A stretch of 63,058 nt of DNA, counting the filler, from Hausera hauseri (Eukaryota), in NCBI GenBank assembly GCA_046269625.1. It is 10 parts of 10 records of this genome, joined end to end, with 100 filler letters (N's around TTAATTAATTAA, not from the genome) between each part and the next. Parts side by side here need not be neighbours in the genome. Positions count along the whole stretch, not along the records: positions 1 to 13,702 come from JBJURY010766539.1; 9 more parts are not named here. One strand, written 5' to 3'. The notes under the pieces are model-generated. The model had not been told where the DNA came from and ran no database searches. It was given only the letters and a program-made list of their open reading frames with translations. The position numbers and the translations under genes are program-made. This document shows positions 1-58,949 of this stretch, in pieces (the stretch's first letter is position 1; each line of letters starts with the position of its first letter).

Positions 1-2
1 AA

Positions 3-368
3 GATACTATAGAAAAACTCCAGCAAAAGATTAGATCTAAACTAAAAGAAAGTAAGACTAATACGTTAGAAGACGGGGATAAGATAGCTGAATTAAAACA
101 GCTATACCTCGAATTAAAAGAACAGCAGACTTGTGAAAAAAGACACAAAATGCTGAGTGAAAATGTTATCATAGCTCCAGTTGGTAGACCCAAAAAGTCC
201 CCCGAGTATGAATCAGAAACTGAAAAGAAGATTAAGAGGAAAGATAAACCTCTCATACAAGAATTAAAAACTCCTGAACTAAGTTTGTCTTCGGAAAGTG
301 AAGTTGAGAAAAGCGAATCTAATGGGAAAGGTGAACCAAAAGAAAAGATAAAGAGAACAAGAAAGTAG
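3..368 (+). CDS. 3' end of upstream ORF (possibly gag C-terminus), K/E-rich
   Basis: Frame open from base 3 to TAG at 366-368; overlaps the start of the -1 frame ORF, which is open from 335; no gag motif visible. Confidence 0.45.
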   Translation, partial: DTIEKLQQKIRSKLKESKTNTLEDGDKIAELKQLYLELKEQQTCEKRHKMLSENVIIAPVGRPKKSPEYESETEKKIKRKDKPLIQELKTPELSLSSESEVEKSESNGKGEPKEKIKRTRK

Positions 369-496
369 AACGGTCACCTGAGTTTGATAGTCCACCCATA
401 GATTTAGATAAGGATGGTATAGAAATAGTTCGGAAGATATCCGGCTATGCCAACCAAGAATTAATTGATGGAACACAGTTTAAGCAGGACCTTTCA

Positions 497-3400
497 ATGT
501 TATTATCACCGACAATTAACCACCATCAATTTGCTAATTTATTGGACTTATTGTTAGTGTATGCTGCAGGCACAAGTCCATACCAGAATATTATACGGTA
601 TATAATTTATCGTTATGCAGATAAAGTAAGCAGAATTGGAGAGAACCCAGAAGTAATAGTTACTCTTCAGCAATACAATCAGGACTTTTACGTCCTAAGA
701 ATGAAGTCGTCAGATACGATAGCCTTTTTAAAGCATAGAATTAATGAAATAAAACAATCTCAAGGAGAACTAGACTTGCGTTTCTATGGACGAACGCTGA
801 TGGATCATGAAACCTTATATGAGGTAGGTATCTGGGAAAACAGATATAATCCAGTATGTATTACTTATAGACAGCCCGAGCAAGAGGTAATTGATGAGAT
901 CATAATGGATGTTAGGCGAAAAGAAACGGAAGAAGCTGAACATCATCAAGAAGTAAGAACTGAAATGAATATTCCTATATCTGAGCAAATACAAACAGAT
1001 AAAAAACCCCGTGGAAGACCGAAAGGTACGACAAAACTTTACCAATTAAAAGGCAGAAAAGCCAGAGATGACGAAGTTGTTCGGAGATTGCTAACAACAG
1101 AAGATGAGTATGATGTAGATAATGTATCATTAACAACATTACTACAAACCTTGTTAGCAAGAATACACAATGCATTTGTTGAGTTCAATACCAATTTACA
1201 AATACCTGATGCACTAATGCAAGCTATAAGAAACGAAATTGCAAAGATTAGTGAGCAATTTGCAGATATCCCTACGGATGAGAGAATAAATGAAATTCAA
1301 GAAAGGGATATTTTATCAAGAATGATGGGAACCGGTATATCCCGAAATAAAATTATAACGGCCATATCGTATCTCTTGTATAAAATAATAGTCATGAACG
1401 GTGTGAATCCGAATCAAGAAGAAATAGAAAGAAACATAGAAATTGCTACCAAAGCGTTAAAGGCCAATGTTGAAGGATGGGTAAAATGTAGAGGTGGATG
1501 GATCACTAGTTTGATTCATACGACAATACATGAATCGGTGCCAGTTACACAACGACAAACGGAATATCTTCCACCTCAACGACCAGAGAGGCAACAAAAT
1601 GTACAACCAGATTTTGATCTATCGTGGTTAACTAAAGTTATACCCATACTTCTCTTATTCAGTCTTATGCCAAAAACACTCTCTATCATTGCTTATGATT
1701 GCAGTCAAGCTAAGGAAGGTCCTATATATTCCTTGTTGGATTTAGAAAAGTGTCCATTTGCTAATCCGGCATCATTAACTACAATAACAGATAAGGATTA
1801 TTATGTTTATCAGGAATCGGAGTTTGTAAAAACCAAAGTGAAAGAATGTTTTGTTCGAAGAAACCAATTCCATTTTATCTGCGGATATTGGTATAGGAAT
1901 TCGGCCATAGTAGAACCGACTACTCCGTTTGAGCCACTCCCTATAAGCAAACGAATGTGTATAGAGGCCTTCGTAACAAAACAAATTAACATCGGAAGTA
2001 TTCGATTAAAAGCTCAAAAAGGAAAAATTATCAACAAGAGGATATTTGTGGCTGGAACAATTGACAAAACAGGCTACTGTAAAGGACAATCCTACATTAT
2101 AAATGGTGAAATGTTGGATAATATAGTAGCTATTGAGGATTATCAAGTTGAGTTGAGAGAGTATGATGCTCTCTTTGAGTTATCATCAGGAAAAATGATG
2201 ACATTTCCTGAATGCGATTACTACAACAAGGAATGTGACACTGGAGAATCAATTATGTCATATGAAGTGGATAAGGATCAATGCCAATTAGCCTTTTTAA
2301 GAAGTGGGAAGTTTAATAAAACGAAAGGAAAGATATACAAAGAAGAGATATCGAAGAGTAGATTAGATCGAATATCAGATACGATTGAAACACCAACCAT
2401 AATATATTCGGCCGATCCAAGCGAAGGTATGAGATTTAAAATAGAAGGTAAAACTAAAAGATGTAACCAAATAGTATATCGAACAAATTATAAAGGTATA
2501 TTTCTATCAATAGATAAAATAAAGGAAGCAAAGAGAAATATAGACAAATCGGAAGTAAAGCCACATTTGTATTTCGATAACAAGATTGACTTTATCTACC
2601 ACTTCCAACAAGAAAATATCTATGCAATGTATAGAGAAATAATACTAAATGATTGTAAACTGAACAAAGAGATTATTAGGAATCGAATATATTTGTCAGC
2701 AATAACGGACGGTATAATGAAAGATCCAGCAGAATCACCCGATACAGAAGGAAAGTTTGCCAGAACAATGGGTGAAACCCTCGTAACTTTCGAGTGTGCA
2801 AAAGTAGCAGTTAAATTAAGACCTATTAAAGATTGTACTATGGAACTACCCGTCTGGTATAAAGAGAAACCACGTTTTCTACAACCAATTACTAGGATAT
2901 TGTTGGATCCTATGGAAAAGCCACTTGTACACCAGAACTGTACATATACTATGTCACCAACGTTCAGGTTGACCAATGATTATTGGATAAGCATGCCCGG
3001 TAAAGAACGGGTGACCACACCCAGAAGAATTAGTTTAATAAACCTAAAGACTGAACAAACCTATAAGCCATTGACAGACTTAGTAAAAATGGGTGTATAC
3101 TCCGAACAGGATATGGAAAATCATAGAAGGATGATGATGGTCCCACAACAGAGACAAAAAGTCTTAACAGAAATGGCCATGAAGGTATTATCTGAACATA
3201 CCGGCAAAGCTAACTGGGAAAATTTGATGGGACCCGATTACGCAAAGAAAATTGCTAGAGATATATTTGCAACTGCATGGGGATGGTACATGTGGTTCGG
3301 CCAGTTTAACTCTGGATGGTTGGGATTTTATTATATCTTTGCCTTCATAAAAGCAATATTAACCATGATAACAAAAGGATATGGTATAAAGCAAGCTGCT

Positions 3401-6322
3401 GGATGCACATGGAAAATTATTTATGCGGTGATCCCATTCGTAGCTAGTTGTTTCTTAATAAAAAAAGATGCTGAGTGGAAACAGAAAAATAAAAATGATA
3501 ATAATGATGAACCATCAACAAAATTAATTGAGAAGATGGGAGAAATAAAACCTCAATCGCTTGAGAATACAAAAAAGACGTGGAGTTTGATTACTGCCCG
3601 AAGTAAGAAAAGAAGAACCTTACTTGCGGATATCCCTCAAATGAAACGATGGAACGAGTATCCAATGGAACAACAATGTTTTATGTCACCTAATGAATAT
3701 ATAGATGTACATTGTTCCAGTGATGTGGATAATTGCGAGTCAAAACATATGAAACTTACATTTTATCCAACGGCCCCAAAAGAGGCTCTGATAACAAGTA
3801 TTGACGGAGGAAAAGTAATTCCGAGAATAGTAATTTGGATAGACGGATATCCTCTTACTGCAATAATAGACACGGGAGCATCAGCTTCGATGATCTCTCG
3901 CAAACAGCTGCCAGAACAATTAAAGAAAAAGTTACAGAAACCTATAGAAGATCTCACAAATGTCGGTGCTTTTGGAACAAAGGTACAAGTGCGAGACATA
4001 ATAAAATGTGACACTAAAGTCCTGAATCAAAAATTCGAACAAGAATTCAGAATAGCGGATGAACTAGTAGCCGAAGCTATACTTGGGTGCGATGCATTGG
4101 CAAAAATGAAAGATATGTGTATCCATTTAGAAACTCAACAAATCCAACCTCTTCGAAAGATGAAAAATGGAAAGAAAGATACAGTCTCCATTAAAGAAGA
4201 TGTACTGATTCCGGCTAAAACAGAAGTTGTACTCAAAGCAATAGTCGAAGGAAGATATGAAGGTGAAGTTTATATAGAACCAAATATAAGTTTTATGACT
4301 AAGAACGAACTATGGATAGCTCATATGATTGACAATATCCGAGAACAACAAGTGATCGTCAGGATAGCCAATGTTTCAAATAAGTCTAAATTTCTCAGGA
4401 AAGGCACAAGAATTGCCTACGTTTACACTATAAAAGATGTAGGCAATAAGGCAACAGAAGATATTATTTCTATTGTACAGGAGTTATCCAATTTTATGGA
4501 AAGACAAAAACAAACTTCAAGAACCAAGTGCGATATACGATTCGAAACAGAACCGATGAATAAATTAAAAGGACATCTTAATAAAAAGAAGATAATAACA
4601 CAGTTAACTAAAACTCTAATTAATTGGAATGATTTTGATCTATTTGGCAAGGACAGTACATTAACAGATATAGAAAAAGAAGGTATAGTTAAAATATTAC
4701 AACAATATAAGGATACCTTCGCAATAGATGAATATGATATGGGTATCATACCAGTCATCAAGCATGAGATCAAATTAAAAGCCGGGATGGAAACCCCTAT
4801 TAAAAAGAGACCATACAGACTCAATTATGACAAAAGAGAAAAAGCCAAAGAAATAATAGCTGAGATGAGAAAATATGACATAATCAGACCCAGCAATTCC
4901 CCCTGGGCGGCTCCTATCGTTATGGTACAGAAGAAGGATGGATCCATTAGAATGTGTGTAGATTATCGTGCTCTTAATGAAGTAACGGTAGACAATACCT
5001 ATCCGTTACCCAGAATTGATGAGCTATTGGATAAATTAAAAGATAAAATGTTGTTTACTACATTAGATCTACAGAAAGGATTTTGGCAGATAGAGGTACA
5101 AGAAGAAGATAAACAAAAAACGGCCTTCGTCACAGCAGATGGACATTATGAGTTTAACCGAATGGCATTTGGAATGAAGAACTCTCCGGCAACGTTTCAA
5201 ACAGCCATGGATATAATAACAATGGATGCTCCACACATAATGTGTTATGTAGATGATGTGATAATTGCTTCAAGTGATTATAAACAACATAAGGAACATC
5301 TCAAAGATATGTTGGAGAGGTGTGCCCTTCTCGGTATAAAAATAAGTTTAAAGAAATGCTGTTTTGCTAGGACAAAAGTAGATTTTTTAGGCCATACGGT
5401 CAGTAGAGAAGGCATCAGTCCACAGATTGGAAAGATCAATAAAATACAGGATTTTCCAGTCCCAAAAACAGTGAAAGGAGTTCGTAAATTTCTCGGTCTT
5501 ACAGGATATTATAGAAAATTTGTTAAAAATTACCAACAAATAGCTTCTCCTTTACATTCGTTACTACAAGAAAACTCTAAACTAGTGTGGACCCAGGAAT
5601 GCCAAAAAGCGTACCAACAACTGAAAGATAGTTTGTTAGCCCCACCAATATTGGCTTATCCAAATATGTCTAAACCATATTTCTTAGCCACAGACGCAAG
5701 TAAAGTTGGAATAGGAGTTGTTTTATCTCAGAAGGATGATCAAGGACAAGAGCATCCTATATCATTTGGAGGACGAAAATTGAGAAAACACGAGAAAAAT
5801 TATTCTACAATTGAAAGAGAATTACTCGCGATCGTATATGCTTTAGAACAGTACGGACAGTATTTGTCGGAAACCAAACCAATTGTTATCTATACCGACC
5901 ATAAGCTGCTACAATGGTTAAAGAATCATAAAAATCCAAATAGTCGTTTGATGAAATGGGCAATGCTACTTCAACCTTACGACTTGAAGTTTGAATATAA
6001 GACTGGTAAGGCCAATGCAAATGCAGACTACATGTCCAGAATACCTGAGGACATAGATCAAGAGGAAGAAATAACGGATAAACCAGGCGTTATAGCAGCC
6101 ATCTGGAGTATTACGGAACATGAAAAATCTTTGCAACAAAAACAACAAGATGATGAACAAATAAGACAAATTATGGAATATATCCAAAAGAAAATTACAC
6201 CAAAAGATATTGATCTTCATACTCACTTAATAAAGTTTGCTGAAAACTATCAAATAAAAGATGGCATATTACATTACAATTATAAAGGAAAATTGGTTGT
6301 TGTTGTCCCCAAGAGGATATAA
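497..6322 (+). CDS. pol: Polyprotein part 1: Ubl, AT-hook, fusion glycoprotein, aspartic protease, RT, RNase H, start of IN (frame open from 335)
   Basis: PR IIDTGASASMI (~3869); RT SPWAAPIVMVQKKDG..MCVDYRALN and YVDD (5246-5257); RNase H ATDASKVGIG, YSTIERELLAI, TDH, NADYMSR. Confidence 0.93.
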   Translation: MLLSPTINHHQFANLLDLLLVYAAGTSPYQNIIRYIIYRYADKVSRIGENPEVIVTLQQYNQDFYVLRMKSSDTIAFLKHRINEIKQSQGELDLRFYGRTLMDHETLYEVGIWENRYNPVCITYRQPEQEVIDEIIMDVRRKETEEAEHHQEVRTEMNIPISEQIQTDKKPRGRPKGTTKLYQLKGRKARDDEVVRRLLTTEDEYDVDNVSLTTLLQTLLARIHNAFVEFNTNLQIPDALMQAIRNEIAKISEQFADIPTDERINEIQERDILSRMMGTGISRNKIITAISYLLYKIIVMNGVNPNQEEIERNIEIATKALKANVEGWVKCRGGWITSLIHTTIHESVPVTQRQTEYLPPQRPERQQNVQPDFDLSWLTKVIPILLLFSLMPKTLSIIAYDCSQAKEGPIYSLLDLEKCPFANPASLTTITDKDYYVYQESEFVKTKVKECFVRRNQFHFICGYWYRNSAIVEPTTPFEPLPISKRMCIEAFVTKQINIGSIRLKAQKGKIINKRIFVAGTIDKTGYCKGQSYIINGEMLDNIVAIEDYQVELREYDALFELSSGKMMTFPECDYYNKECDTGESIMSYEVDKDQCQLAFLRSGKFNKTKGKIYKEEISKSRLDRISDTIETPTIIYSADPSEGMRFKIEGKTKRCNQIVYRTNYKGIFLSIDKIKEAKRNIDKSEVKPHLYFDNKIDFIYHFQQENIYAMYREIILNDCKLNKEIIRNRIYLSAITDGIMKDPAESPDTEGKFARTMGETLVTFECAKVAVKLRPIKDCTMELPVWYKEKPRFLQPITRILLDPMEKPLVHQNCTYTMSPTFRLTNDYWISMPGKERVTTPRRISLINLKTEQTYKPLTDLVKMGVYSEQDMENHRRMMMVPQQRQKVLTEMAMKVLSEHTGKANWENLMGPDYAKKIARDIFATAWGWYMWFGQFNSGWLGFYYIFAFIKAILTMITKGYGIKQAAGCTWKIIYAVIPFVASCFLIKKDAEWKQKNKNDNNDEPSTKLIEKMGEIKPQSLENTKKTWSLITARSKKRRTLLADIPQMKRWNEYPMEQQCFMSPNEYIDVHCSSDVDNCESKHMKLTFYPTAPKEALITSIDGGKVIPRIVIWIDGYPLTAIIDTGASASMISRKQLPEQLKKKLQKPIEDLTNVGAFGTKVQVRDIIKCDTKVLNQKFEQEFRIADELVAEAILGCDALAKMKDMCIHLETQQIQPLRKMKNGKKDTVSIKEDVLIPAKTEVVLKAIVEGRYEGEVYIEPNISFMTKNELWIAHMIDNIREQQVIVRIANVSNKSKFLRKGTRIAYVYTIKDVGNKATEDIISIVQELSNFMERQKQTSRTKCDIRFETEPMNKLKGHLNKKKIITQLTKTLINWNDFDLFGKDSTLTDIEKEGIVKILQQYKDTFAIDEYDMGIIPVIKHEIKLKAGMETPIKKRPYRLNYDKREKAKEIIAEMRKYDIIRPSNSPWAAPIVMVQKKDGSIRMCVDYRALNEVTVDNTYPLPRIDELLDKLKDKMLFTTLDLQKGFWQIEVQEEDKQKTAFVTADGHYEFNRMAFGMKNSPATFQTAMDIITMDAPHIMCYVDDVIIASSDYKQHKEHLKDMLERCALLGIKISLKKCCFARTKVDFLGHTVSREGISPQIGKINKIQDFPVPKTVKGVRKFLGLTGYYRKFVKNYQQIASPLHSLLQENSKLVWTQECQKAYQQLKDSLLAPPILAYPNMSKPYFLATDASKVGIGVVLSQKDDQGQEHPISFGGRKLRKHEKNYSTIERELLAIVYALEQYGQYLSETKPIVIYTDHKLLQWLKNHKNPNSRLMKWAMLLQPYDLKFEYKTGKANANADYMSRIPEDIDQEEEITDKPGVIAAIWSITEHEKSLQQKQQDDEQIRQIMEYIQKKITPKDIDLHTHLIKFAENYQIKDGILHYNYKGKLVVVVPKRI
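650..868 (+). other. Ubiquitin-like domain within the polyprotein
   Basis: SSDTIAFLKHRI and LRFYGRTLMDHETLYEVGI align with ubiquitin PSDTIENVKAKI and LIFAGKQLEDGRTLSDYNI; no C-terminal GG. Confidence 0.75.
1001..1027 (+). other. AT-hook motif
   Basis: KKPRGRPKG. Confidence 0.7.
1625..3460 (+). other. Env-like class III fusion glycoprotein (chuvirus/Jingchuvirales G-like)
   Basis: Internal signal peptide WLTKVIPILLLFSLMPKTLS, then IIAYDC..YSLLDLEKC; Cys-rich ectodomain (KVKECFV..FICG, GETLVTFECAKV, CTMELPV..FLQPITRIL); C-terminal WGWYMWFGQFNSGWLGFYYIFAFI TM. Confidence 0.8.
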
Positions 6323-6327
6323 AACTA

Positions 6328-9300
6328 TTGTTAATACAATACCATGATGGTATGTTGGGAGGACATCAATCAAAGAAGCGAACATTGGGTAGATTGAGAA
6401 GAAAATATTACTGGCATAAAATGCCTAAAGATGTAGAAGAATGGTGCAAAAGTTGCCCCAAAAATACTGGCTCAAAAATTAAGGTCCCCCTTAAACCACT
6501 GGAGTGTCCACCAGCCCCAATGGAGTTCTCAGCAATGGACATTCTAGGACCGTTACCTATGACAATAAATGGAAACAAATATATGTTAGTATTTGTTGAT
6601 CTATTTTCCAGATGGCCGGTCGTAATACCAATACCAGACCAAAAAGCCCAGACGATTGCTCAGGCCTTTGTCGAGGAAATTGTTTTTAATTATGGAGCAC
6701 CAACCAAATTATTGACGGATCAAGCACCAAACTTCACAGGAGAAGTCATGGCGCAAATATCAAAAATATTTCAGGTATTACAATTAAAAACTACCCCGTA
6801 CCATCCTCAAACAAATGGAACAGTGGAAAGATTTAACGGAATTTTAACCAATATGTTAGCTACAATGGTCAATGAACGACAAGACGATTGGGATGAGTAT
6901 ATTAAACCATGCCTGTTTGCAATTAGAAACACAATTCATCCAGCAACTAAGGAAACACCTTTTTATTTGATGTATCTGAGAGATACTCATATGCCAATTG
7001 ATTTGGATTTTAAAATTCCAATTTCCCATTTAAAAGATCTGGAATATAAAGAATTGTTAGAAGAAAAATTAGGGTATGTATGGAATCTAGCGTCTCGTCA
7101 CATGAAGATATGTCAAAAAGAATATAAAGAACGATACGATGAAAAAGCGAAACCACATGACTTTAAACCTGGTGATAAAGTCATGTTACATACACCCTTA
7201 AATAAGAAAGGAAAGACACCGAAATTAGATAGACCATACAAAGGTCCATACATAGTTCAAAAAGCAGATGAAACTAACATCTATCTAAATAAAAATAAAA
7301 GAAATAAAATCGACCCTATAAAAGTTCATGTAAACAGGTGTAAACCAGCACCTATAGAGTCGAAAATAAGGAATGAAAACCTCAGTTCGTTATTAATGGT
7401 AATATTTATGACATTAACCTTAGTGACCGGTATATCAGCTCAAACATTAGATGTAAACTATAAGGCCGTACAAATTGGAAAATATCCCTGTATAAAAATT
7501 ACAGCCAATCGGAATCTGACAACAGATGAATATATACACATATTCATATCGAAATATCCGGTACTAGAGAAAACAACACCAGAAAATTGCGACTTATATT
7601 ATAATCACTCGGTACACATTTGTTGTGGACTTTCATTTGGAGAAACATATAGAATTCAGTATGCAACTGGGAAAAGTGATCAGAGTTACAGAACATATTT
7701 CTCCTTCCCTGGTACTACCCATCATTTTAATCGACCATATTTTCTTATTTCATTTTACCCTAAAATTATGAAAAATGGACCTTGTGTAACAGCGGAACCA
7801 GATGTTACAATTACGAGATATGTCACATTCAAATACATAATATTTGATGGTATTAACAGTATATACTGTAAACCAAATTATGAAAATCCATATATATGTT
7901 GTCCCATTGCCTTTGACAAGGAATATATGATATATTACTGGACTACATATAATGGCCAAACCTGGTCAAAAACATCAGATGGCCCGGAGATAATGGTAAG
8001 ATCTCCCCCTAAGAAAATTACAATCTCAACAAAGAAAACAATTACTTTAACAACAACACCCACTTTAGTAACCAGCCTAACAACTAAAGCCAAAAAATTC
8101 ATTAAAGAATTAGATATAATCATCCAACCTACAATTCATTCATTGGTTATTACGGCATCCGATTTAAAAACTACCAATATAAAATTTGAATGCTATCTTA
8201 ATTATAGAATAATTAGTGAAGGTGTACTAACTCCAGATGAACCAACATCATCTTGCTTATCTTTGAAAGCCGACACCAGTTACCAAGTTATTATAACAGA
8301 ACTAGATGAGGATGGACAAGTTTTACAGGTTCTTAAAAGGAAGGAGAAAACGTTGAAATTACCTATGATTAATACAGAAAGAGTTACGAAAATAGTTACT
8401 ACACAAAAATTTGAACAAACTTCAAATAAACATTCTTGGATAATTATTATATTATGTATTCTTTTAATATTGGTAGTCATATTAATACCTTTAACAATTT
8501 ACTGTTTAAAAATAAGGCGGCGACAGAACAGGGTAAGAAAAATGCTAAATCATTTAAAAATGTTAAAAGAAAACTCCCAAAACTCCTTATTAGATATAAG
8601 CGCGTCTGTTTTAGAAAATCCACGGCAAGTTGAAAAACTTACCGACCAAAAACGGCTAATCCGCCCGTTAAAAGACACGACCGTTTGTCTATGTACTCGA
8701 ATATACGATGAGGCCGCCAAAACCTTAGTGACCTATATAAGAATTAAACAATCAAAATACGATAATGTCCTATTCTTTAAAACCGCTTGGCTAATGCTAA
8801 TGTTTTTATTTTTAGTCCAAGAAGGTGCAGAACGAACTGAAAGGCCCAATGCTTTTTACAATCACATTTTGTCTAATTTATGGGCTACTTCTCATCAGAA
8901 CTATTGCTACTATGGAAAAGCTGTACTCATCCCCAATAACCTCAAGGGATATTCTATCCAGCAAAGAAGTGGTCTCATAGTAAAATTGCAACAGAGATCA
9001 ATTAATCTCTCCGATCTAATAAATACATCCGGATATACCTATGCTGTATATATCTCAGTCGCCAGAGGAATTATTCAACTCAAAAGTAAGTCACATGCAA
9101 CGGGAATCACGGATGTGATGGAGATCTTAAACCGAGTAACCGTTCGTTTGGACCCTCGACTATACCTTAACGCTACAATTACTATACGAACATGCGAAGG
9201 ATCATTCCCAATAATTTATATAGAAGTGATTAAAAAGGATCAAATACTTCGCTTGGATTACCAAATTCCAAAATTTATGACACCCAGACCTAAGGAAACT

Positions 9301-10221
9301 GATGTAGAAGCAGGGTTATCATTTATAAGAAGGCCAATAACTTCAAAAGAAGTAATAATAATAATGGCTTTGAATTCGATATATTTATTCACTTCAATCA
9401 GAAATACTGAGACAACTCCTGTAGAAGTAACGTTAATGAAGTTAAACGGTGAAATTATCCTGGATGAAATTCTATGTCCTAGGGAAAAAATTGATAACTA
9501 TAATACCCATATAACAGGGTTAAAAGAGGACCACATTATCGGTAAAAAAGATTTCTATCATGAAGAACCCCTTTTGAGAAAAGCAATTGTGGGAAAGGTA
9601 ATTGTAGGCATCGATGTTTATAACATCTTTGCAACCACATTCAGATACGACTATAACAATCTCTTGGGGATCAGGGAACTTTTATATCACAAGGATGTCA
9701 ATCCTCAGCGGATATATACAGCTAAACAAATTCTCACCCAATACAATGATAATAAATACCCTCAAAGGACTCGAGACAAAGCTTTGACCATACTGAAGAT
9801 TTATAACTCTATTTTCGAGTATCAAAATGAGAAATTCGAAGAACTAACAAGTTCAAGAGAATCAATGGATACACAACCAATCGCTGACTACCCAATCGCG
9901 CTAATTCCTACAGTGTCAACTCTACCTATCGATGATCAAACTGAAACATCCTCTTCCGTTCAGATAATGAAAGACTGTTCTATTGATCTGAAGCCGTTGG
10001 AATTAACCAGCTCTACTGAATCTATTCTCGTAGACCTTACGAAGACGACAAAAAGAAAAAAAATTCCGAAGAGAGAAACAATTACTCTGAAGAGACAGAT
10101 TAAAAAGAAAGGGCGAGTACTTCATATCAAATCCGTCGACTACCAAGACTCAAATGGAATTATAGAAGCCTACCCTTTGATGCTGCGGACAGCATCATCT
10201 AAGGAGGGAGGTGTCAAATAA
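6328..10221 (+). CDS. Polyprotein part 2 (after a 1-nt frameshift near 6312): integrase, signal peptide, 3 FN3-like repeats, TM, unknown domain, DEDDh-like domain
   Basis: H..H..C zinc-binding region; DDE residues AMDILGP, LTDQAPNF, GTVERFNG; GPY module KGPYIV; hydrophobic segments at 7381-7440 and 8437-8508. Confidence 0.88.
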   Translation: MLIQYHDGMLGGHQSKKRTLGRLRRKYYWHKMPKDVEEWCKSCPKNTGSKIKVPLKPLECPPAPMEFSAMDILGPLPMTINGNKYMLVFVDLFSRWPVVIPIPDQKAQTIAQAFVEEIVFNYGAPTKLLTDQAPNFTGEVMAQISKIFQVLQLKTTPYHPQTNGTVERFNGILTNMLATMVNERQDDWDEYIKPCLFAIRNTIHPATKETPFYLMYLRDTHMPIDLDFKIPISHLKDLEYKELLEEKLGYVWNLASRHMKICQKEYKERYDEKAKPHDFKPGDKVMLHTPLNKKGKTPKLDRPYKGPYIVQKADETNIYLNKNKRNKIDPIKVHVNRCKPAPIESKIRNENLSSLLMVIFMTLTLVTGISAQTLDVNYKAVQIGKYPCIKITANRNLTTDEYIHIFISKYPVLEKTTPENCDLYYNHSVHICCGLSFGETYRIQYATGKSDQSYRTYFSFPGTTHHFNRPYFLISFYPKIMKNGPCVTAEPDVTITRYVTFKYIIFDGINSIYCKPNYENPYICCPIAFDKEYMIYYWTTYNGQTWSKTSDGPEIMVRSPPKKITISTKKTITLTTTPTLVTSLTTKAKKFIKELDIIIQPTIHSLVITASDLKTTNIKFECYLNYRIISEGVLTPDEPTSSCLSLKADTSYQVIITELDEDGQVLQVLKRKEKTLKLPMINTERVTKIVTTQKFEQTSNKHSWIIIILCILLILVVILIPLTIYCLKIRRRQNRVRKMLNHLKMLKENSQNSLLDISASVLENPRQVEKLTDQKRLIRPLKDTTVCLCTRIYDEAAKTLVTYIRIKQSKYDNVLFFKTAWLMLMFLFLVQEGAERTERPNAFYNHILSNLWATSHQNYCYYGKAVLIPNNLKGYSIQQRSGLIVKLQQRSINLSDLINTSGYTYAVYISVARGIIQLKSKSHATGITDVMEILNRVTVRLDPRLYLNATITIRTCEGSFPIIYIEVIKKDQILRLDYQIPKFMTPRPKETDVEAGLSFIRRPITSKEVIIIMALNSIYLFTSIRNTETTPVEVTLMKLNGEIILDEILCPREKIDNYNTHITGLKEDHIIGKKDFYHEEPLLRKAIVGKVIVGIDVYNIFATTFRYDYNNLLGIRELLYHKDVNPQRIYTAKQILTQYNDNKYPQRTRDKALTILKIYNSIFEYQNEKFEELTSSRESMDTQPIADYPIALIPTVSTLPIDDQTETSSSVQIMKDCSIDLKPLELTSSTESILVDLTKTTKRKKIPKRETITLKRQIKKKGRVLHIKSVDYQDSNGIIEAYPLMLRTASSKEGGVK
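7381..8508 (+). other. Second type I membrane protein with three FN3-like repeats and a Thr-rich linker
   Basis: Repeated motif ICCGLSFGETYRIQY / ICCPIAFDKEYMIYY / SCLSLKADTSYQVII; TM WIIIILCILLILVVILIPLTIYCL followed by basic KIRRRQNRVRK. Confidence 0.65.
9350..9820 (+). other. REXO4/ISG20-like DEDDh exonuclease fold with catalytic residues substituted
   Basis: EVTLMKLNGEIILDEILCPREKIDNYNTHITGLKEDHI..KAIVGKVIVG resembles the REXO4-type RVSIVN..G..YDKYVKP.EPVTDYRT.VSGI....L..LKGRILVGH; ALNSI stands in place of ALDCE. Confidence 0.7.
10201..10211 (+). promoter_or_regulatory. Polypurine tract
   Basis: AAGGAGGGAGG immediately before TGTCAA. Confidence 0.75.
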
Positions 10222-10988
10222 ATGAAATCATTGAAGTGCTGTTTGATCAATAATATAACCATGAGTATTGAACATATGTGAAATTATTGAACAGATAATT
10301 AAAATTGATTGACTTATGGTTTTGCAGATTAAAAAGGATTTTCTTTTCATTTTTCTTTGACGATATCAACCATGTGTAATAATTAAAATAGATTTGTAAT
10401 TATCTCCTCATTTTTTTGACATATGTCACGGCTGTAGTTTTATTATAAATACCGTTACTATTCATACCATTGACACACAATTTTTGACTGAATACTGACT
10501 TCTGATACATTATGAATCTGACGTATGATAATTGTAAGTTATGTTTTTTTGTTCCTTTTTGTTCATATTTTCTTCTCGTATTTTGGTTGATTATTTAATT
10601 TAATATTTTATTAAATATTCCGATAGTTTCAGTTGTTTTGATTTATTGGTTTAGCGTAAAGTAATTAACTAAAAGGTACCGTATTGTAATAGAGATAAAT
10701 AAAATAAATTCAAGACAACCCCTTTTTGGTATACCTTCCTTTAATACAGGTCGGTTGTTAAAAATCACAATAAATAAGGGAGAGCGACGTCGGTGTACCT
10801 CCCGACCGAACTCACACATTAAGAAAAAGTAATTAAATAAAATTCCTGAATTTCGGCAGACCCACAGGCTGCCGAATACTCTGACTAATTAAATAGAACT
10901 TGGGACACGGAGAGGACCCAAGTTGAGAACTGATAGTATAAGTTTAAGGTCGTGAGACCAAATAAATTTTACACCTTCAAACTTATCA
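10212..10988 (+). repeat. 3' LTR (~777 bp)
   Basis: Starts with TG after the PPT; TATAAA ~10445; AATAAA motifs; ends ..CTTATCA, where homologous coding sequence of another element resumes; collinear with 11391-12090. Confidence 0.7.
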
Positions 10989-10989
10989 T

Positions 10990-11411
10990 AGAGATAAAGC
11001 CTTAGTTATTCAAAAGATTTATCGGTCAATCCCTGACTACCAAAAATAAGTGAAAAATCGAAAAACACGCCAATTAACGTACAAGTATTCCCACATCCAC
11101 CAGCACCTGTCCAACTAGCGCCAATTCAGACGCTTTCTCAAAGTGCATCGCCAAATAATTGGAAACATTTACTGCGTGATATCTTATTGTCTAATATCTC
11201 TACTCGTGATATTAATAACCTCATCAAAAACTACATACAACAAATACCAGATAAGAAAACAGTTACCATCAAACGAAAAATTATGGAGGATAATGAATGG
11301 ATAGAAGTTGATTCAGTAAGATACAAACGTGCCGATGGTTCCTTTATAATCTTCCCTCTTAAGCCGAGCGTAGCTTCTTCTAGGAAGGGATATATCGACG
11401 ATATAAACTGA
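10990..11411 (+). pseudogene. 3' polyprotein tail of a related element (end of exonuclease-like domain plus C-terminal motif)
   Basis: RDKALVIQKIYRSIPDYQ vs RDKALTILKIYNSIFEYQ; TIKRKI..EVDSVRYKRADGSFIIFPL..VASSRKG vs TLKRQI..HIKSVDYQDSNGIIEAYPL..TASSKEGG; one frameshift. Confidence 0.8.
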
Positions 11412-12090
11412 CTAAACTGTCCGCCAAATTCAAATAAACCAGACGAAATTGATCCGGTTAAGTATAAACTATGTAAACAATTTACATTGATGTGAAATTT
11501 AATTTTTCGATCTAATCTATGTGATCATTGATTTAATTTATTTCATGTGAAATTTAATTTCATTATTTTGAAATTTATTTTTTTTTTTATTGTAACTGAA
11601 CTCTTGATTTATATAAATACCACTCACATCTTAACAAGACTGACACAATCTTTAACAATTTATAATTTTTTGCACTGTAACTTTCATAGATGTATCCTTC
11701 CTATGATAGATGTAAACCTCATTTCTATTGTTATTTCGTTTGATTTCAATTGTTACAGTAGATTTCATTTTAATTCATATTAAAATTTTATATTATTGTA
11801 CTTTTATTCTTTTTAGTTGAGAGTAAATAAGTAAGTAGTTTTACATTAACAAGACTTACGAAACAATTTAATTAATATCTAATGGGTTCCCTCTTCGGTA
11901 TACCGCCCCATAAGGACGATTGTCTAAAATGATATAAATAAGGTAGACTATCCGTAGTATGCCTCCTAGCGATCAAGTCACACCGTAGGATCAAATAATA
12001 CAGAGTAACCCCACAGGTTACTGCGAGAATAATTAAAAATTAAGTTTAAAGTCGCGAGGCCTAAACTATTTAGAACTTTTAAACTTAACA
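11391..12090 (+). repeat. Diverged 3' LTR of the related element
   Basis: PPT AGGAAGGGA at 11382-11390; blocks TATAAATACC, GGTATACC, ATAAATAAGG, CCCACAGG and AAGTTTAA shared with the first LTR; ends AAACTTAACA. Confidence 0.65.
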
Positions 12091-52675: not shown

Positions 52676-55600
52676 TTTTTGATTCAACTCACTGCGGACA
52701 GTCCTAATATGCATGTGTCCGGAACTGGGTCAGTCCAAATATTTCTTCGACTCAACTCATTGCGGAAAGTTCAAATTTGCACTTATCCGGAACTGGTTCA
52801 GCCCAAAATTATTTTTCGACTCAACTCATAGGGGTGAGAAAATATATGCATGTGTCCGGAACTGGGTCAGTCCAAAATTTTCTTTGATTCAATTTATTGC
52901 GGTGGGTCGGAATATGCATGTCTCCGGAACTGGGTCAGTCCAAAATTTTTTTCGAGTCTATTCATTGCTGTGAGTGCACGTATGCAGGTGTCCGGAACTG
53001 GGCCAGTCCAAAGAATTTATCGACTCAATTCATTGCGGAAGAATAAGTGTGCATATGTCCGAAACGGTGTCAGTCCGAAATTTTCGCGACTCAACTCATT
53101 GCGGTGAGTTCAAATTTGCAACTTCCCGGACTGGGTCTGTCCAAAATTTTTTTCCACTCAACCCATTGCGGTGAGTCCAAATATGCAGGTGTCCGGAACT
53201 GGGCCAGTCCAAATATTTTTTCGCCTCAACTCATTGCGGCAAGTACAAATTAGCAACTGTCCGGAAGTGGGTCAGTCCAAATTTTTTTTGAATCATCTTG
53301 TTGCGGTGAGTAGGAATATTCATGTGTCTGGAACTGCTGAGTCCAAATTTTTTTGATTCACCTCATTGCAGTGAGTCGGAATGCGCAGGTGTTCGGAAAT
53401 GTGCCAGTCCAAAATTTTTTTTGGACTCAACCCATTGCGGTGAGTCCAAATATGCAGGTGTTTGGAACTGGGCCNNNNNNNNNNATTCAAATTACCACGG
53501 TGAGTCGGAATATGCATGTTTCCGGAACTGGGTGAGTCCAAAATTTTTTTGATTCAATTCATTGCGCTGAATCGGAATGCGCAGGTGTTCGGAACTGGGC
53601 TAGTCCAAAATTTTATTTCGACTCAACCCATTGCAGTAAGTTCAAATTTGCTACTGTGCGGAACTGGGTCAGTCCAAATTTTTTTTCGTGTCAATTCATT
53701 GCTGTGAGTCCACATATGCAGGTGTCCGGAACTGGGTCAGTCGAAATATTTTTTCGCCTCAACTCATTGCGGTAAGTTCAAATTTGCAATTGTGCGAAAC
53801 TGCGTCAGTCCAAATTTTTTTTCGTGTAAATTCATTGCTGTGAGTCCACATATGCAGGTGTCCGGAACTGTGTCAGTCCAAATAATTTATTGAATCAATT
53901 CATTGTGGTGAAAACCAGTATTTATATATCCGGATCTGTGTCCGTCCAAAATTTTTTGGATTCAAATCACTGAGGTGAGTCCAAATGTGCATGTTTCCGG
54001 AACTGTGCCAGTTCAAATTTTTTTTGCTTCAGATCATTGCGGTGGGTCGGAATATGCATGTGTCCGGAACTGGGTCAGTCCAAATATTTTTTCGACTCAA
54101 CTCATTGCGGAAAGTTCAAATTTGCACGTATCCGGAACTGGGTCAGCCCAAAATTTTTTTTCGACTCACCTCATAGCGGTGAGAACAAATATGCATGTGT
54201 CCGGAACTGGGTGAGTCCAAAATATTTTTGATTCCACTCATTGCGGTTAGTCGGAATGTGCAGGTGTTCGGAACTTGGCCAGTCCAAAATATTTTTTCGT
54301 CTCAGCTCATTGCGGTGAGTTCAAGTTTGCAAATTTCCGGACTGGGTCTCCGAAATTTTTTTTCACTCAACCTATTGCGCTGAGTCCAAATATGCACGTA
54401 TCCGGAACTGGGCCAGTCCAAATATTTTTTCTACTCAACTCATTGCGGCAAGTACAAATTAGCAACTGTCCGGAACTGGGTCAGTCCAAATTTTTTTTCA
54501 TTCAGGTCATTGCGGTGAGTCGGAATATGCATGTGTCCGAAACTGGATGAGTCCAAATTTTTGACTCAACTCATTGCGGTGAGTAGGATTGCGCAGGTGT
54601 TCGGAACTGGATCAGTCCAAATTTTTTTTCTTCTCAACTCATTGCGGTGAGTTCAAATTTGCAACTTTCCGGACTGGTTCAGTGCAAAAATTTTTTTCGA
54701 CTCCACCCATTGCGGTGAGTCCAAATATGCAGGTGTCCAAGACTGAGTCAGGCCGAAATTTTTCTCCATTCAACTCATTGCGGAGAGTTCGAATGTGCAT
54801 GTGTCCGGAACTGGGTGAGTCCAAATTTTTTTGCTTCAACTCATTGCGGTTAGTCGGATTGCGCAGGTGTTGGGAACTGGGTCAGTCCAAAAATTTTTTT
54901 TGACTCCACCCATTGCGGTGAGTCCAAATATGCAGGTGTCCGGAAATGGTTCAGTCCGAAATTTTTCTCCATTCAACTCATTGAGGAGAGTTCGACTGTG
55001 CATGTGTCCGGAAATGTGTCAGTCTACATTTTTTTTATTCAACTCATTGCGGTGAGTCCAAATTTGCAGCTGTCCGGAATTGGGTCAGTCCAAATTTTAT
55101 TTGGAATCAATTCATTGCTGTCAGAACCAATATGCACGTGTTCGGAACTGGGTCAGTCTAAATATTTTTCGTCTCAACTTATTGCGGTGAGTTCAAATTT
55201 GCAACTATCCGGACTGAGTCAATCCGAAATGTTTTTTCGACTCCACCAATTACGGTGAGTACAAATATGCAGGTGTCCGGAAATGGGTTAGTCCGAAAAT
55301 TTTCTCCATTCAACTCATTGCGGAGAGTTTGAATATGCATGTGTCCAAAACTGGGTCAATCCGATTTTTTTTATTCAACTCATTGCTGACTGTCCTAGTA
55401 TGCTTTCGTCTGGAACTGGGACAGTCGAAAATATTTTTTCGACTCAAATAATTGCTGTGAGTCCAAATAATCAGGTTTCCGGAACTGGCTCAGTCCAAAT
55501 ATTTTTTCGACTCAATTCATTGCGGTGAGTCGGAATATGCATGTGTCCGGAACTGGGTCAGTCCAAAATTTTTTTTGATTCAACTTATTGCGGTGAGTAG

Positions 55601-58600
55601 AAATATGCATGTGTCCGGAACTGGTGAGTCCAAAATTTTTTTGATTCAACTCATTGCGGTGAGTCAAAATGCGCAGGTGTTCGGAACTGGGTCAGTCCAA
55701 ATTTTTTTTCGTCTCAACTCATTGCGGTGAGTCCAAATATGCAGGTGTCCGGAACTGGGTCAGTCCGAAATTTGTCTCCATTCAACTCACTGCGGAAAGT
55801 TCGAATGTGCATGTGTCCGGAACTGGGTGAGTCCAAAATTTTTTTGATTCAACTCATTGCGTTTAGTCGGAATGCGCAGGTGTTCGGAACTGGGACAGTC
55901 CAAATTTTTTTTCGTCTCAACTCATTGCGGGGAGTTCAAATTTGCAACTTTCCGGACAGGCTCAGTCCAAAATATTTTTTCGACTCAAACCATTGAGGTG
56001 AGTTCAAATTTGCAACTGTCCGGAACTGGGTCAGTCCAAATTTTATTTCGAATCAATTCATTTCTGTCAGTCCAAATATTCATGTGTCCCGAACTGGCTC
56101 AGTCCAAATATTTTTTCGACCCAATTCATTGCGGTGAGAACAAATATCCATGTGTCCGGAACTGGTGAGTCCAAAATTTTTTGATTCAACTTATTGCGGT
56201 GAGTCGGAATGCGCAGGTGTTCGGAACTGGGTCAGTCCAAATTTTTTTTCGTCTCAACTTACTGAGGTCAGTTCAAATTTGCAACTTTCCGGACTGGGTC
56301 AGTCCAAAATACTTTTTCGACTCACCCCATTGCACTGAGTTCAAATTTGCAACTGTCCGGACCTGGGTCAGTCCAAATTTTATTTCGTATCAATTCATCG
56401 CTGTGAGTCCAAATATGCAGGTGTCCGGAAATGGCTCAGTCCAAATAGTTTTTCGACTCAATTCATTACGGTGAGAACAAATATGCACGTGTCCGGAACT
56501 GGGTCAGTCCAAAACTTTTTTTGATTCAACTTATTGCGGTGAGTTCAAATTTGCAACTGTCCGGAAGTGGGTCAGTCCAAATTTTATTTCGAATCAATTC
56601 ATTGCTGTGAGTCCAAATATGCAGGTGTCCGGAACTGGGTCAGTCCAAAAATTTTTGATTCAACTTATTGCGGTGAGTCGGAATATGCATGTGTCCGGAA
56701 CTGGGTGAGTCGAAAATTTTTTTGATTCAACTCATTGCGGTGAGTCGGAATGCGCAGGTGTTCGGAACTGGGTCAGTCCAAATTTTTTTTCGTCTCAACT
56801 CATTGCGGTGAGTTCAAATTTGCAACTGTCCGGAACTGGGTCAGTCCAAATTTTTTTTGTCTCAACTCATTGCGGTGAGTTCAAATTTGCAACTTTCCGA
56901 AACTGAGTTAGTCCAAATTTTATTTCGAATCAATTCATTGCTGTGAGTCCAAATATGCAGGTGTCTGGAAATGGCTCAGTCCAAATAGTTTTTCGACTCA
57001 ACTCTTTGCGGTGAGTCGGAATATGCATGTGTCTGGAACTGGTGAGTCCAAAATTTTTTGATTCAACTCATTGCGGTGAGTCGGAATGCGCAGGTATTCG
57101 GAACTGGGTCAGTCCAAATTTTTTTTCGTCTCAACTCACTGAGGTGAGTTCGAATTTGCAACTTTCCGTAGTGGGTGAGTCCAAAATTTTTTTTCGACTC
57201 CACCCATTACGGTAAGTTTAAATAAGCAGGTGTCCGGAAATGGGTCAGTCCGAAATTTTGCTCCATTCAACTCATTGCGGAGAGTTCGATTGTGCATGTG
57301 TTTGGAACTGTGTCAGTCTAATTATTTTGATTTAACTTATTGCTGACAGTTCTAATATGCTTGCGTCTGGAACTGGGTCAGTCCAAAATTTGTTTTGATT
57401 CAACTCATGGCGTTTAGTCGGAATGCGCAGGGTTTCGGAACTGGGACAGTCCAAAATTTTTTTCGACTCAACTCATTGCGGTGAGTACAAATTTGCAGCT
57501 GTCCGGAATTGGGTCAGTGCAAATTTTATTTCGAATGAATTCATTGCTGTGAGTCCAAATATTTATGTGTCCCAAACTGGCTGAGTCCAAATATTTTTTC
57601 GACTTAGTTCATTGCGGTGAGAACAAATATGCATGTGTCCGGTACTGGGTCAGTCCAAAATTTTTTTTGACTCAACTTATTGCGGTGAGTCGGATTGCCC
57701 GGGTATTCGGAACTGGGTAAATCCAAATTTTATTTCGTCTCAACTCATTGCGGTGAGTACAAATTTTCAGCTGTCCGGAACTGGGTCAATCCAAATATTA
57801 TTTCGAATCAATTCATTGCTGTGAGTCCAAATATGCACGTGTCCGGATCTGGCTCAGTCCAAATAGTTTTTCGACTGATTTCATTACGAAGAAAAGAGAC
57901 ATGCATGTGTCCGGAACTGGGTCAGTCCAAAATTATTTTTCGACTCCACTCATTGCGGTGAGTCCAAATATGCAGGTGTCCGGCAATGGATCTGTCCGAA
58001 ATTTTTCTCCATTCAACTCATTGCGGAGAGTTCGATTGTGCATGTGTTTGGAACTGGGTAAGTCTAAAATTTTTTTTGATTCAACTCATTTCGGTGAGTC
58101 GGATTGCGCAGGTATTCGGATCTGGTTCAATCCAAATTTTTTTTCGTCTCATCTCATAGCTGTGACTTCAAATTTGCAACTTTCCGGACTGGGTCAGTCC
58201 AAAATTTTTAATCGACTCCACCCATTGCGGTGAGTCCAAATATTCAGGTGTCCGGCAAAGGATCTGTCCGAAATTTTTCTCCATTCAACTCATTGCGGAG
58301 AGTTTGATTGTGCATGTGTCCGGAACTGGGTGAGTCCAAAATTTTTTGATTCAACTCATTGCGGTGAGTCGTAATGCGCAGGTGTTCGAAACTGGGTCAG
58401 TCCAAATTTTTTTTCGTCTCAACTCACTGAGGTCAATTCAAATTTGCAACTTTCCGGAGTGGGTGAGTCCAAAATTTTTTTTCGATTCCACCCATTTCAA
58501 TGAGTTCAAATTTGCAACTGTCCGTTAATGGGTCAGTCCAAATTTTATTTCGAATCAATTCATTGCTGTGAGTCCAAATATTCAGGTGTCTGGAAATGGC

Positions 58601-58949
58601 TTAGTCCAAATAGTTTTTCGACTCAATTCATTGCCGTAAGAACAAATATGCATGTGTCCGGAACTGGGTGAGTCCAAAACTTTTTTTGATTCAAATTATT
58701 GCGGTGAGATCAAATTTGCAACTGTCCGGAAGTGGGTCAGTCCAAATTTTATTTCGAATCAATTCATTGCTGTGAGTCCAAATATTCAAGTGTCTGGAAA
58801 TGGCTCAGTCCAAATAGTTTTTCGACTCAATTCATTGCGGTAAGAACAAATATGCATGTGTCCGGAACTGGGTCAGTCTAAAATTTTCTTGATTCAACTC
58901 ATTTCGGTGAGTCGGATTGCGCAATTATTTGGATCTGGTTCAATCCAAA
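52676..58949. repeat. Tandem satellite, ~68-bp monomer (~90 copies)
   Basis: Consensus approximately GTCCGGAACTGGGTCAGTCCAAATTTTTTTTCGACTCAACTCATTGCGGTGAGTCCAAATATGCATGT; GGAACT recurs at 52721, 52789, 52858 and onward. Confidence 0.97.

Follow-up and report, generated by a model that had tools for sequence, protein, structure and literature searches.

Does the end of the polyprotein frame of a flatworm-type retrotransposon encode an exonuclease fold that has given up catalysis, and if so, is the gene decaying or kept for another use? The question is raised by a locus in the 63,058-nt stretch of Hausera hauseri DNA analyzed here (assembly GCA_046269625.1; hereafter, the window), which consists of contigs joined by N-spacers. 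The feature sits in the first contig (positions 1 to 13702), where the last 463 residues of an open reading frame (ORF; 6286 to 10221), whose start encodes integrase, make up the module in question; its residues are counted from position 8830. As the closing cargo gene, the module belongs to a Ty3/gypsy element that is Burro-like in its GAG-ENV-POL order and probably planarian. A sequence-only reading had proposed a captured REXO4/ISG20-type DEDDh fold with lost catalytic residues, and the motifs on which it relied (ALNSI, GIDVYNI, and QRTRDKA) do lie where it put them, within those 463 residues. Searched alone against the sequences of known structures, the module matched ISG20L2 (7yw5; E = 5.7e-6) and ISG20 (1wlj; E = 9.4e-5), the sole two matches at E ≤ 10. 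The profile of its family matched ISG20L2 (1.4e-31), ISG20 (2.4e-21), SDN1 (5e-16), and PolC (1e-8), which makes the REXO4/ISG20 branch the closest by sequence homology. A Pfam scan of the module itself returned no match in any part, and a database cluster atlas returned RNase_T clusters only (score 0.92, 166 shared features). A structure model built with an alignment of 37 relatives reached a predicted local distance difference test score (pLDDT) of 86, versus 32 from the single sequence, and residues 177 to 338 of this predicted model superpose on ISG20 with Z = 15.5 and a root-mean-square deviation (rmsd) of 2.9 over 159 aligned residues (DnaQ-like fold). The EXO-like domain of Exuperantia (5l80) was also among the fold matches (Z = 9.7). 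The scaffold is thus recognizable beyond chance, as had been claimed, and a DEDDh match was found where its absence would have spoken against the fold.

The catalytic residues of ISG20 are D11, E13, D94, H149, and D154 (PMC9157404). Their equivalents in the module are S183, Y185, I266, Q312 (or a gap), and K317, so that none of the five is kept. The loss of the catalytic residues therefore stands, but ExoI had been placed one residue too early relative to the family alignment. No alternative alignment restores the acids: residues 175 to 193 contain no Asp or Glu, which leaves no register in which the ExoI acid could be recovered, and no His occurs from residue 288 to the domain end, the part around ExoIII. 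Could the protein nevertheless cut through a rearranged active site built on D262, D316, or other residues? Two acids do remain near the pocket, D262 aligning with the noncatalytic D90 of ISG20 and D316 with the acid that precedes the catalytic Asp. However, both metal-binding ExoI acids are absent in every register, the general-base His is missing, and D262 and D316 are conserved in only about a third of the inactive relatives described below, and we consider such an enzyme most improbable. Judged from its sequence, the domain is a DEDDh homologue and not an active member.

To see how the gene varies, contigs of related copies (at least 80% alike) were aligned over positions 9340 to 9850, giving 124 differences; the figures that follow use the 40 with the best support. 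Of these 40, 32 are silent (for changes of this mix, 35% would be expected; p = 7e-9; ratio of nonsynonymous to silent polymorphism, pN/pS, ~0.13), and 30 fall at third codon positions; there is no stop among them, no indels are listed, and none touches the five catalytic-equivalent codons. The dead domain is under purifying selection, and because dead members of the family have longer branches, the constraint is looser than in active members but real. Those branches, together with the broken state of an adjoining older copy and a frame break in pol of the present copy, are what could be said for a purposeless gene in decay. That explanation is already largely refuted by the excess of silent differences among the best-supported 40, with no indels listed, and by 11 other dead genes with full or partial open frames at 18 to 29% identity; we regard it as very improbable.

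These relatives come from an exhaustive HMMER search over 1.84 billion representative sequences, which returned 45 matches: 37 of an element-type family, mostly 400 to 660 amino acids (aa) long with both domains of the module present, and 8 cellular-type RNase_T proteins. We call a relative dead if it is without the ExoI aspartate and most other catalytic residues, and active or intact if all five positions are acidic or His. By this definition, 23 of the 37 keep all five positions (8 as DEDHD, 15 as DEEHD), 3 are fragments that retain ExoI, and 11 are dead, including the best match, P0003. The dead members keep P217-R218, D241, and G280-x-R282 and, in the first domain, I34-P35-N36, K39, R46, and E132. 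Family clusters carried no informative name among the 30 of 37 looked up. Word-index homologue searches with the module retained 0 of 5952 and 0 of 1891 candidates, and with the profile 2 of 7997; locus searches with the window's protein in viral and metagenome contigs, and with the alignment of intact relatives in viral contigs, found none. One protein, P0040 (804 aa), has at least three tandem RNase_T domains, some with altered catalytic residues, and resembles a giant-virus exonuclease that is among the fold matches.

In trees computed with the catalytic columns removed and P0040 left out, the family forms one branch against cellular proteins (support 100/99). The dead state requires at least two changes, with the dead P0037 standing among intact members; bootstraps give two to three, and well-supported branches force two. 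Holding all 12 dead members, the present copy included, as one group gave p = 0.051 in the approximately unbiased (AU) test. The first-domain tree, from which fragments were also left out, gives five changes, and up to five to six, at weak support, with only one forced. Long branches meet in the tree, and a single origin of the dead state is neither shown nor clearly rejected. Since 23 of 37 relatives keep the site and at least two losses are separate, the ancestor was likely an active exonuclease whose activity would then have been lost repeatedly, in at least two lineages.

The sequence-only reading had instead drawn its case for conservation from a related element at 10990 that also reads RDKAL. 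That element is real, but it is a broken remnant: it starts 1 nt past the final CA of the 3′ long terminal repeat (LTR) and matches the module at 57% over 30 aa (E = 8e-4) and, in the C-terminal motif, at 33% over 51 aa (E = 7e-7). The remnant most likely derives from an older relative that served as the insertion target of the present element. The common RDKAL shows that the ExoIII change would predate the split between the two; because the remnant spans ExoIII only, it is uninformative on ExoI and ExoII. Selection on the present copy and its 11 dead relatives are therefore the stronger grounds for holding that the noncatalytic state is conserved and not decay. The C-terminal motif is common to module and remnant; across the family, a similar ending was seen by eye in several relatives and was not significant by phmmer.

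The stretch of about 170 aa before the exonuclease fold, previously called unassigned, can be assigned: its residues 1 to 141 are modeled as a double-stranded beta-helix of AlkB type. The best fold matches are ALKBH6 (Z = 11.4, rmsd 3.7 over 139 aa), ALKBH7 (10.7), and Ofd2 (10.3), followed by cupins at 9.6 and below, among them the dimerizing cupins CENP-C (9.4) and Mif2 (8.7); Foldseek also points to cupin and 2-oxoglutarate (2OG) folds. With a Z margin of ~2, identity of 7 to 11%, and no Pfam match, AlkB is a candidate donor alongside other cupins. An HxD..H iron triad and a 2OG-binding Arg are absent at positions placed by strand order, not superposition. The family has no HxD, and its single conserved His column (position 76) is Ser in the present copy.

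What might such a protein do? Our preferred reading, to which we give a probability of roughly 0.5, is that the module is a noncatalytic nucleic-acid-binding protein that may shield the ends of element RNA or cDNA or sequester host small RNAs. This reading rests on two folds of nucleic-acid enzymes, on basic residues that are conserved, on the basic character of the tail, and on precedents among cellular proteins: PML PXL is a DEDD pseudonuclease that binds nucleic acid (PMC13659232), and Maelstrom and EXD1 are further DEDD pseudonucleases, as cited in PMC5408684. An ancestral element would have captured a host REXO4-type exonuclease and used it first as an active 3′-5′ nuclease; several lineages would later have dropped catalysis while retaining the fold, and the dead protein would hold nucleic-acid ends, whether of element RNA or cDNA or of host small RNAs. 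Holding ends without cutting might then protect the element against RNA decay or silencing by the host, the target being the weakest step.

Several observations weigh against this reading. The domain has a net charge of 0; mean net charge is +4.8 in dead and +2.0 in active members, with a wide spread. The residues Met14 and Arg53, which contact ribose and its 2′-OH in ISG20 (PMC9157404), are replaced by L186 and N225, and they are not kept in active relatives either. Charge and contact residues give no support to nucleic-acid binding. No common residue takes the place of the lost acids among dead members, which also evolve faster (median root-to-tip distance 2.23 versus 1.76 in active members). 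Among dead members, genomic context comes from the present copy only, and the selection figures come from the best-supported 40 of 124 differences among contigs at least 80% alike. No nearby in-frame ATG follows the predicted splice acceptor.

Neutral charge would suit a protein scaffold or decoy, in which the fold persists because it binds a protein of the host or of the element, such as a partner of REXO4-type nucleases or a sister element's active copy. So would the conservation of noncatalytic surface residues, the presence of dimerizing cupins among the fold matches, and the nature of the other cargo (Bcl-2-like, ubiquitin-like, TRAF, and RING), all of them protein-interaction modules. 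Against it, the top fold match of each domain is an enzyme that acts on nucleic acid, some Arg residues are invariant, the tail is basic, and the partner is purely putative; we hold this, the main alternative, as possible but doubtful. Bolder than nucleic-acid binding as such, and in our view unlikely, is that planarian-type endogenous retroviruses carry an AlkB-fold/DEDDh family in which an RNA-trimming enzyme was repeatedly turned into a double pseudo-enzyme, the dead form capping or sequestering RNA ends and suppressing piRNA/RNAi silencing in stem cells. Elements of planarians do well in stem cells that are rich in PIWI, and few anti-silencing proteins of animal retrotransposons are known to us.

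We asked also how the module might be expressed, since no stop separates it from the integrase and polyprotein in the present copy. A predicted 3′ splice site ends at 8815, 14 nt upstream of the module, and of the ten highest-scoring YAG sites (out of 268 in positions 1 to 10221) it has the most T-rich tract. Among the seven loci of relatives, six (four being closely related) have a T-rich AG no more than 4 nt from the start codon; such an AG also stands directly or nearly ahead of seven of nine other cargo ORFs and is absent before gag. Cargo ORFs thus mostly start as if each were spliced out of one long RNA, and the module is likely expressed from a spliced mRNA, as predicted from the sequence. 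Given the lack of a nearby ATG past the acceptor, its start codon would need an upstream exon or the in-frame Met codons just before the acceptor. TRAF, RING, and coiled-coil cargo ORFs at other loci (L004 to L007; position 9105 of L003) mostly begin right after a T-rich AG.

If the whole frame were instead translated through, hydrophobic residues 827 to 846 of the ORF might thread the polyprotein end into the secretory pathway, where the module would act outside the cytosol. The stretch from integrase to module is free of stops, the segment equals the upstream signal in strength, the first domain has three N-glycosylation sequons, and the closest relative, P0003, also begins hydrophobic. Yet the hydrophobic codons overlap the T-rich splice tract, dead members are not richer in sequons than active ones, relatives have the gene as a separate ORF, and the tail is basic and resembles a nuclear localization signal. 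We find secretion quite unlikely, and the hydrophobic stretch ahead of the domain probably arises as a side effect of the T-rich tract.

The features of the locus are collected in the table.

Table. Features of the element in the first contig of the window
Feature	Position	Strand	Basis
ORF1 of the host element, 5′ end missing: ubiquitin-like (weak), Bcl-2-like (weak), Monjiviricetes/gB-type fusion glycoprotein, protease, reverse transcriptase (RT), RNase H	335..6322	+	Pfam
Integrase (H2C2 + rve), in a frame different from RNase H	6286..7377	+	Pfam, ORF map
Second membrane protein after integrase: signal-like segment, ectodomain (weak Fn3-like match), transmembrane helix	7378..8520	+	Pfam, sequence
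Predicted 3′ splice site: CTAAT branch-point-like motif, T-rich tract, AG	8791..8815	+	Sequence; function inferred
AlkB/cupin-type double-stranded beta-helix, residues 1-141, without HxD..H iron triad	8830..9252	+	Model, fold search
Linker with family-conserved S-F-x-R motif	9253..9357	+	Family alignment
REXO4/ISG20-type DEDDh pseudo-exonuclease domain, residues 177-338, under purifying selection	9358..9843	+	Sequence search, model, alignment
Catalytic-equivalent codons, none acidic or His	9376, 9382, 9625, 9763, 9778	+	Family alignment
Low-complexity tail, basic stretch, and C-terminal motif (10057-10209) common with older remnant	9844..10221	+	Sequence comparison
Polypurine tract	10201..10211	+	Sequence
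Likely 3′ LTR, TG...CA, 777 nt	10212..10988	+	Inferred; similarity to LTR-like end of older copy
3′ end of older related element, the insertion target: RDKAL (10990-11004), stop and frame change, C-terminal motif (11238-11390), own LTR-like end (~11391-12090)	10989..12090	+	Sequence comparison

Within ORF1, the fusion glycoprotein (E = 2e-76) and RT (4e-38) are matched by Pfam; the ubiquitin-like (0.002) and Bcl-2-like (0.024) matches follow the published order, yet both are below the curated Pfam cutoff. A gB-type env precedes protease, RT, RNase H, and integrase in frame, as in Burro-like GAG-ENV-POL elements, and by eye it has YYVYQES and cysteines in common with Smed_errantivirus_1/2. The frame is broken here at the RNase H/integrase junction (6286 to 6322); since relatives at loci L002 and L003 are continuous in one frame across it, the break is likely a lesion of the present copy. 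A second frame change lies near 335 to 368. The 5′ LTR and the 5′ end of the element fall outside the contig; 464 positions of the 3′ LTR are identical in the LTR-like stretch that ends the older copy (score 469 versus 307 ± 15 shuffled). Many diverged copies of the element occur in two public runs, with 32046 and 4466 contigs aligned. Contig depth was lower over this ORF than over pol and was not used, since contig depth cannot rank genes.

Genomic context of the relatives comes from seven loci, all with an intact site and from one metagenome assembly. At L002 and L003, the gene is an ORF of its own, placed after a 3000-residue env-pol polyprotein whose last part is a membrane protein; at L005 and L007, it comes after a TRAF gene (at L007 also RING), and at L004, gag lies after it. 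An uncharacterized type I membrane protein, possibly with two Fn3-like repeats, also follows integrase at L002 (8400 to 9636) and L003 (7720 to 8935), and BLASTP similarity among the three post-integrase membrane proteins was not significant. Residues 1000 to 1730 of the L002 polyprotein, between env and RT, contain additional hydrophobic segments and at least two stretches that resemble proteases. Elsewhere in the window, another broken gB-type env lies on the minus strand of a different contig (37902 to 39296; 27% identity to that of ORF1 over 476 aa), and positions 52676 to 58949 hold a long tandem array with a period of ~68 nt and copies ~76% alike.

The planarian giant gypsy elements Burro/GYPSM1 encode ubiquitin/SUMO-like, Bcl-2-like, and mononegavirus-type fusion proteins in frame before protease, RT, RNase H, and integrase (PMC6431247), and a GAG-ENV-POL order with gB-type env is reported only from nematodes, bryozoans, and flatworms (PMC13524379). 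From the fusion protein to integrase, the module order of these elements and of the HSV/gB-type errantiviruses matches that of the present element, whose relatives carry TRAF and RING cargo. Together with the resemblance of its env to Smed_errantivirus_1/2, this order and its narrow distribution make a planarian host probable. The available text of PMC13524379 has no mention of exonuclease, AlkB, or DEDD, and its seven supplements have none of exonuclease; nor is exonuclease or AlkB cargo mentioned for Burro-like elements in the available portions of that paper or of PMC6431247. The cellular REXO4, ISG20, and ISG20L2 exonucleases (PF00929; PMC9157404) have the same fold end to end and are the best sequence and structure matches; unlike them, the present protein is without the five catalytic residues, is fused to a beta-helix domain, and is element-borne. 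Rotifer Juno/Vesta LTR elements and Terminons carry, as here, a DEDD exonuclease as an extra gene after pol (ORF3), with a DEED variant that may be compared to the DEEHD of 15 of our 23 intact relatives (PMC5408684). However, ORF3 is DEDDy (RNase D-like) with intact catalytic residues and, in the available text, no reported AlkB-like domain (PMC5408684); it is a separate capture. An AlkB-type fold is likewise cargo of large Ty3/gypsy elements in orchids, where it is an active m6A demethylase in its own ORF (PMC9289625), whereas here the triad is absent family-wide and a DEDDh fold is joined to the domain. PML PXL (PMC13659232), Exuperantia (5l80), and Maelstrom/EXD1 (via PMC5408684) also have DEDD folds without catalytic residues that are kept for nucleic-acid binding, which is shown in their case, but they are host genes of unrelated origin, while the present protein is mobile cargo known from sequence and a model.

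Earlier publications thus cover the type of element, DEDD cargo carried by LTR elements (PMC5408684), AlkB cargo (PMC9289625), and pseudonucleases of cells (PMC13659232). Our literature search found no description of an AlkB-fold/DEDDh fusion or of its repeated inactivation, although annotation in the primary Burro paper or in Repbase is possible. The module extends a published group of elements by a cargo and a domain fusion that are undescribed, and it is an example of pseudo-enzymes arising repeatedly in mobile DNA. A family whose active and dead forms both occur naturally in one gene slot, with selection acting on the dead one, offers a comparison for how elements may use proteins that bind RNA ends.

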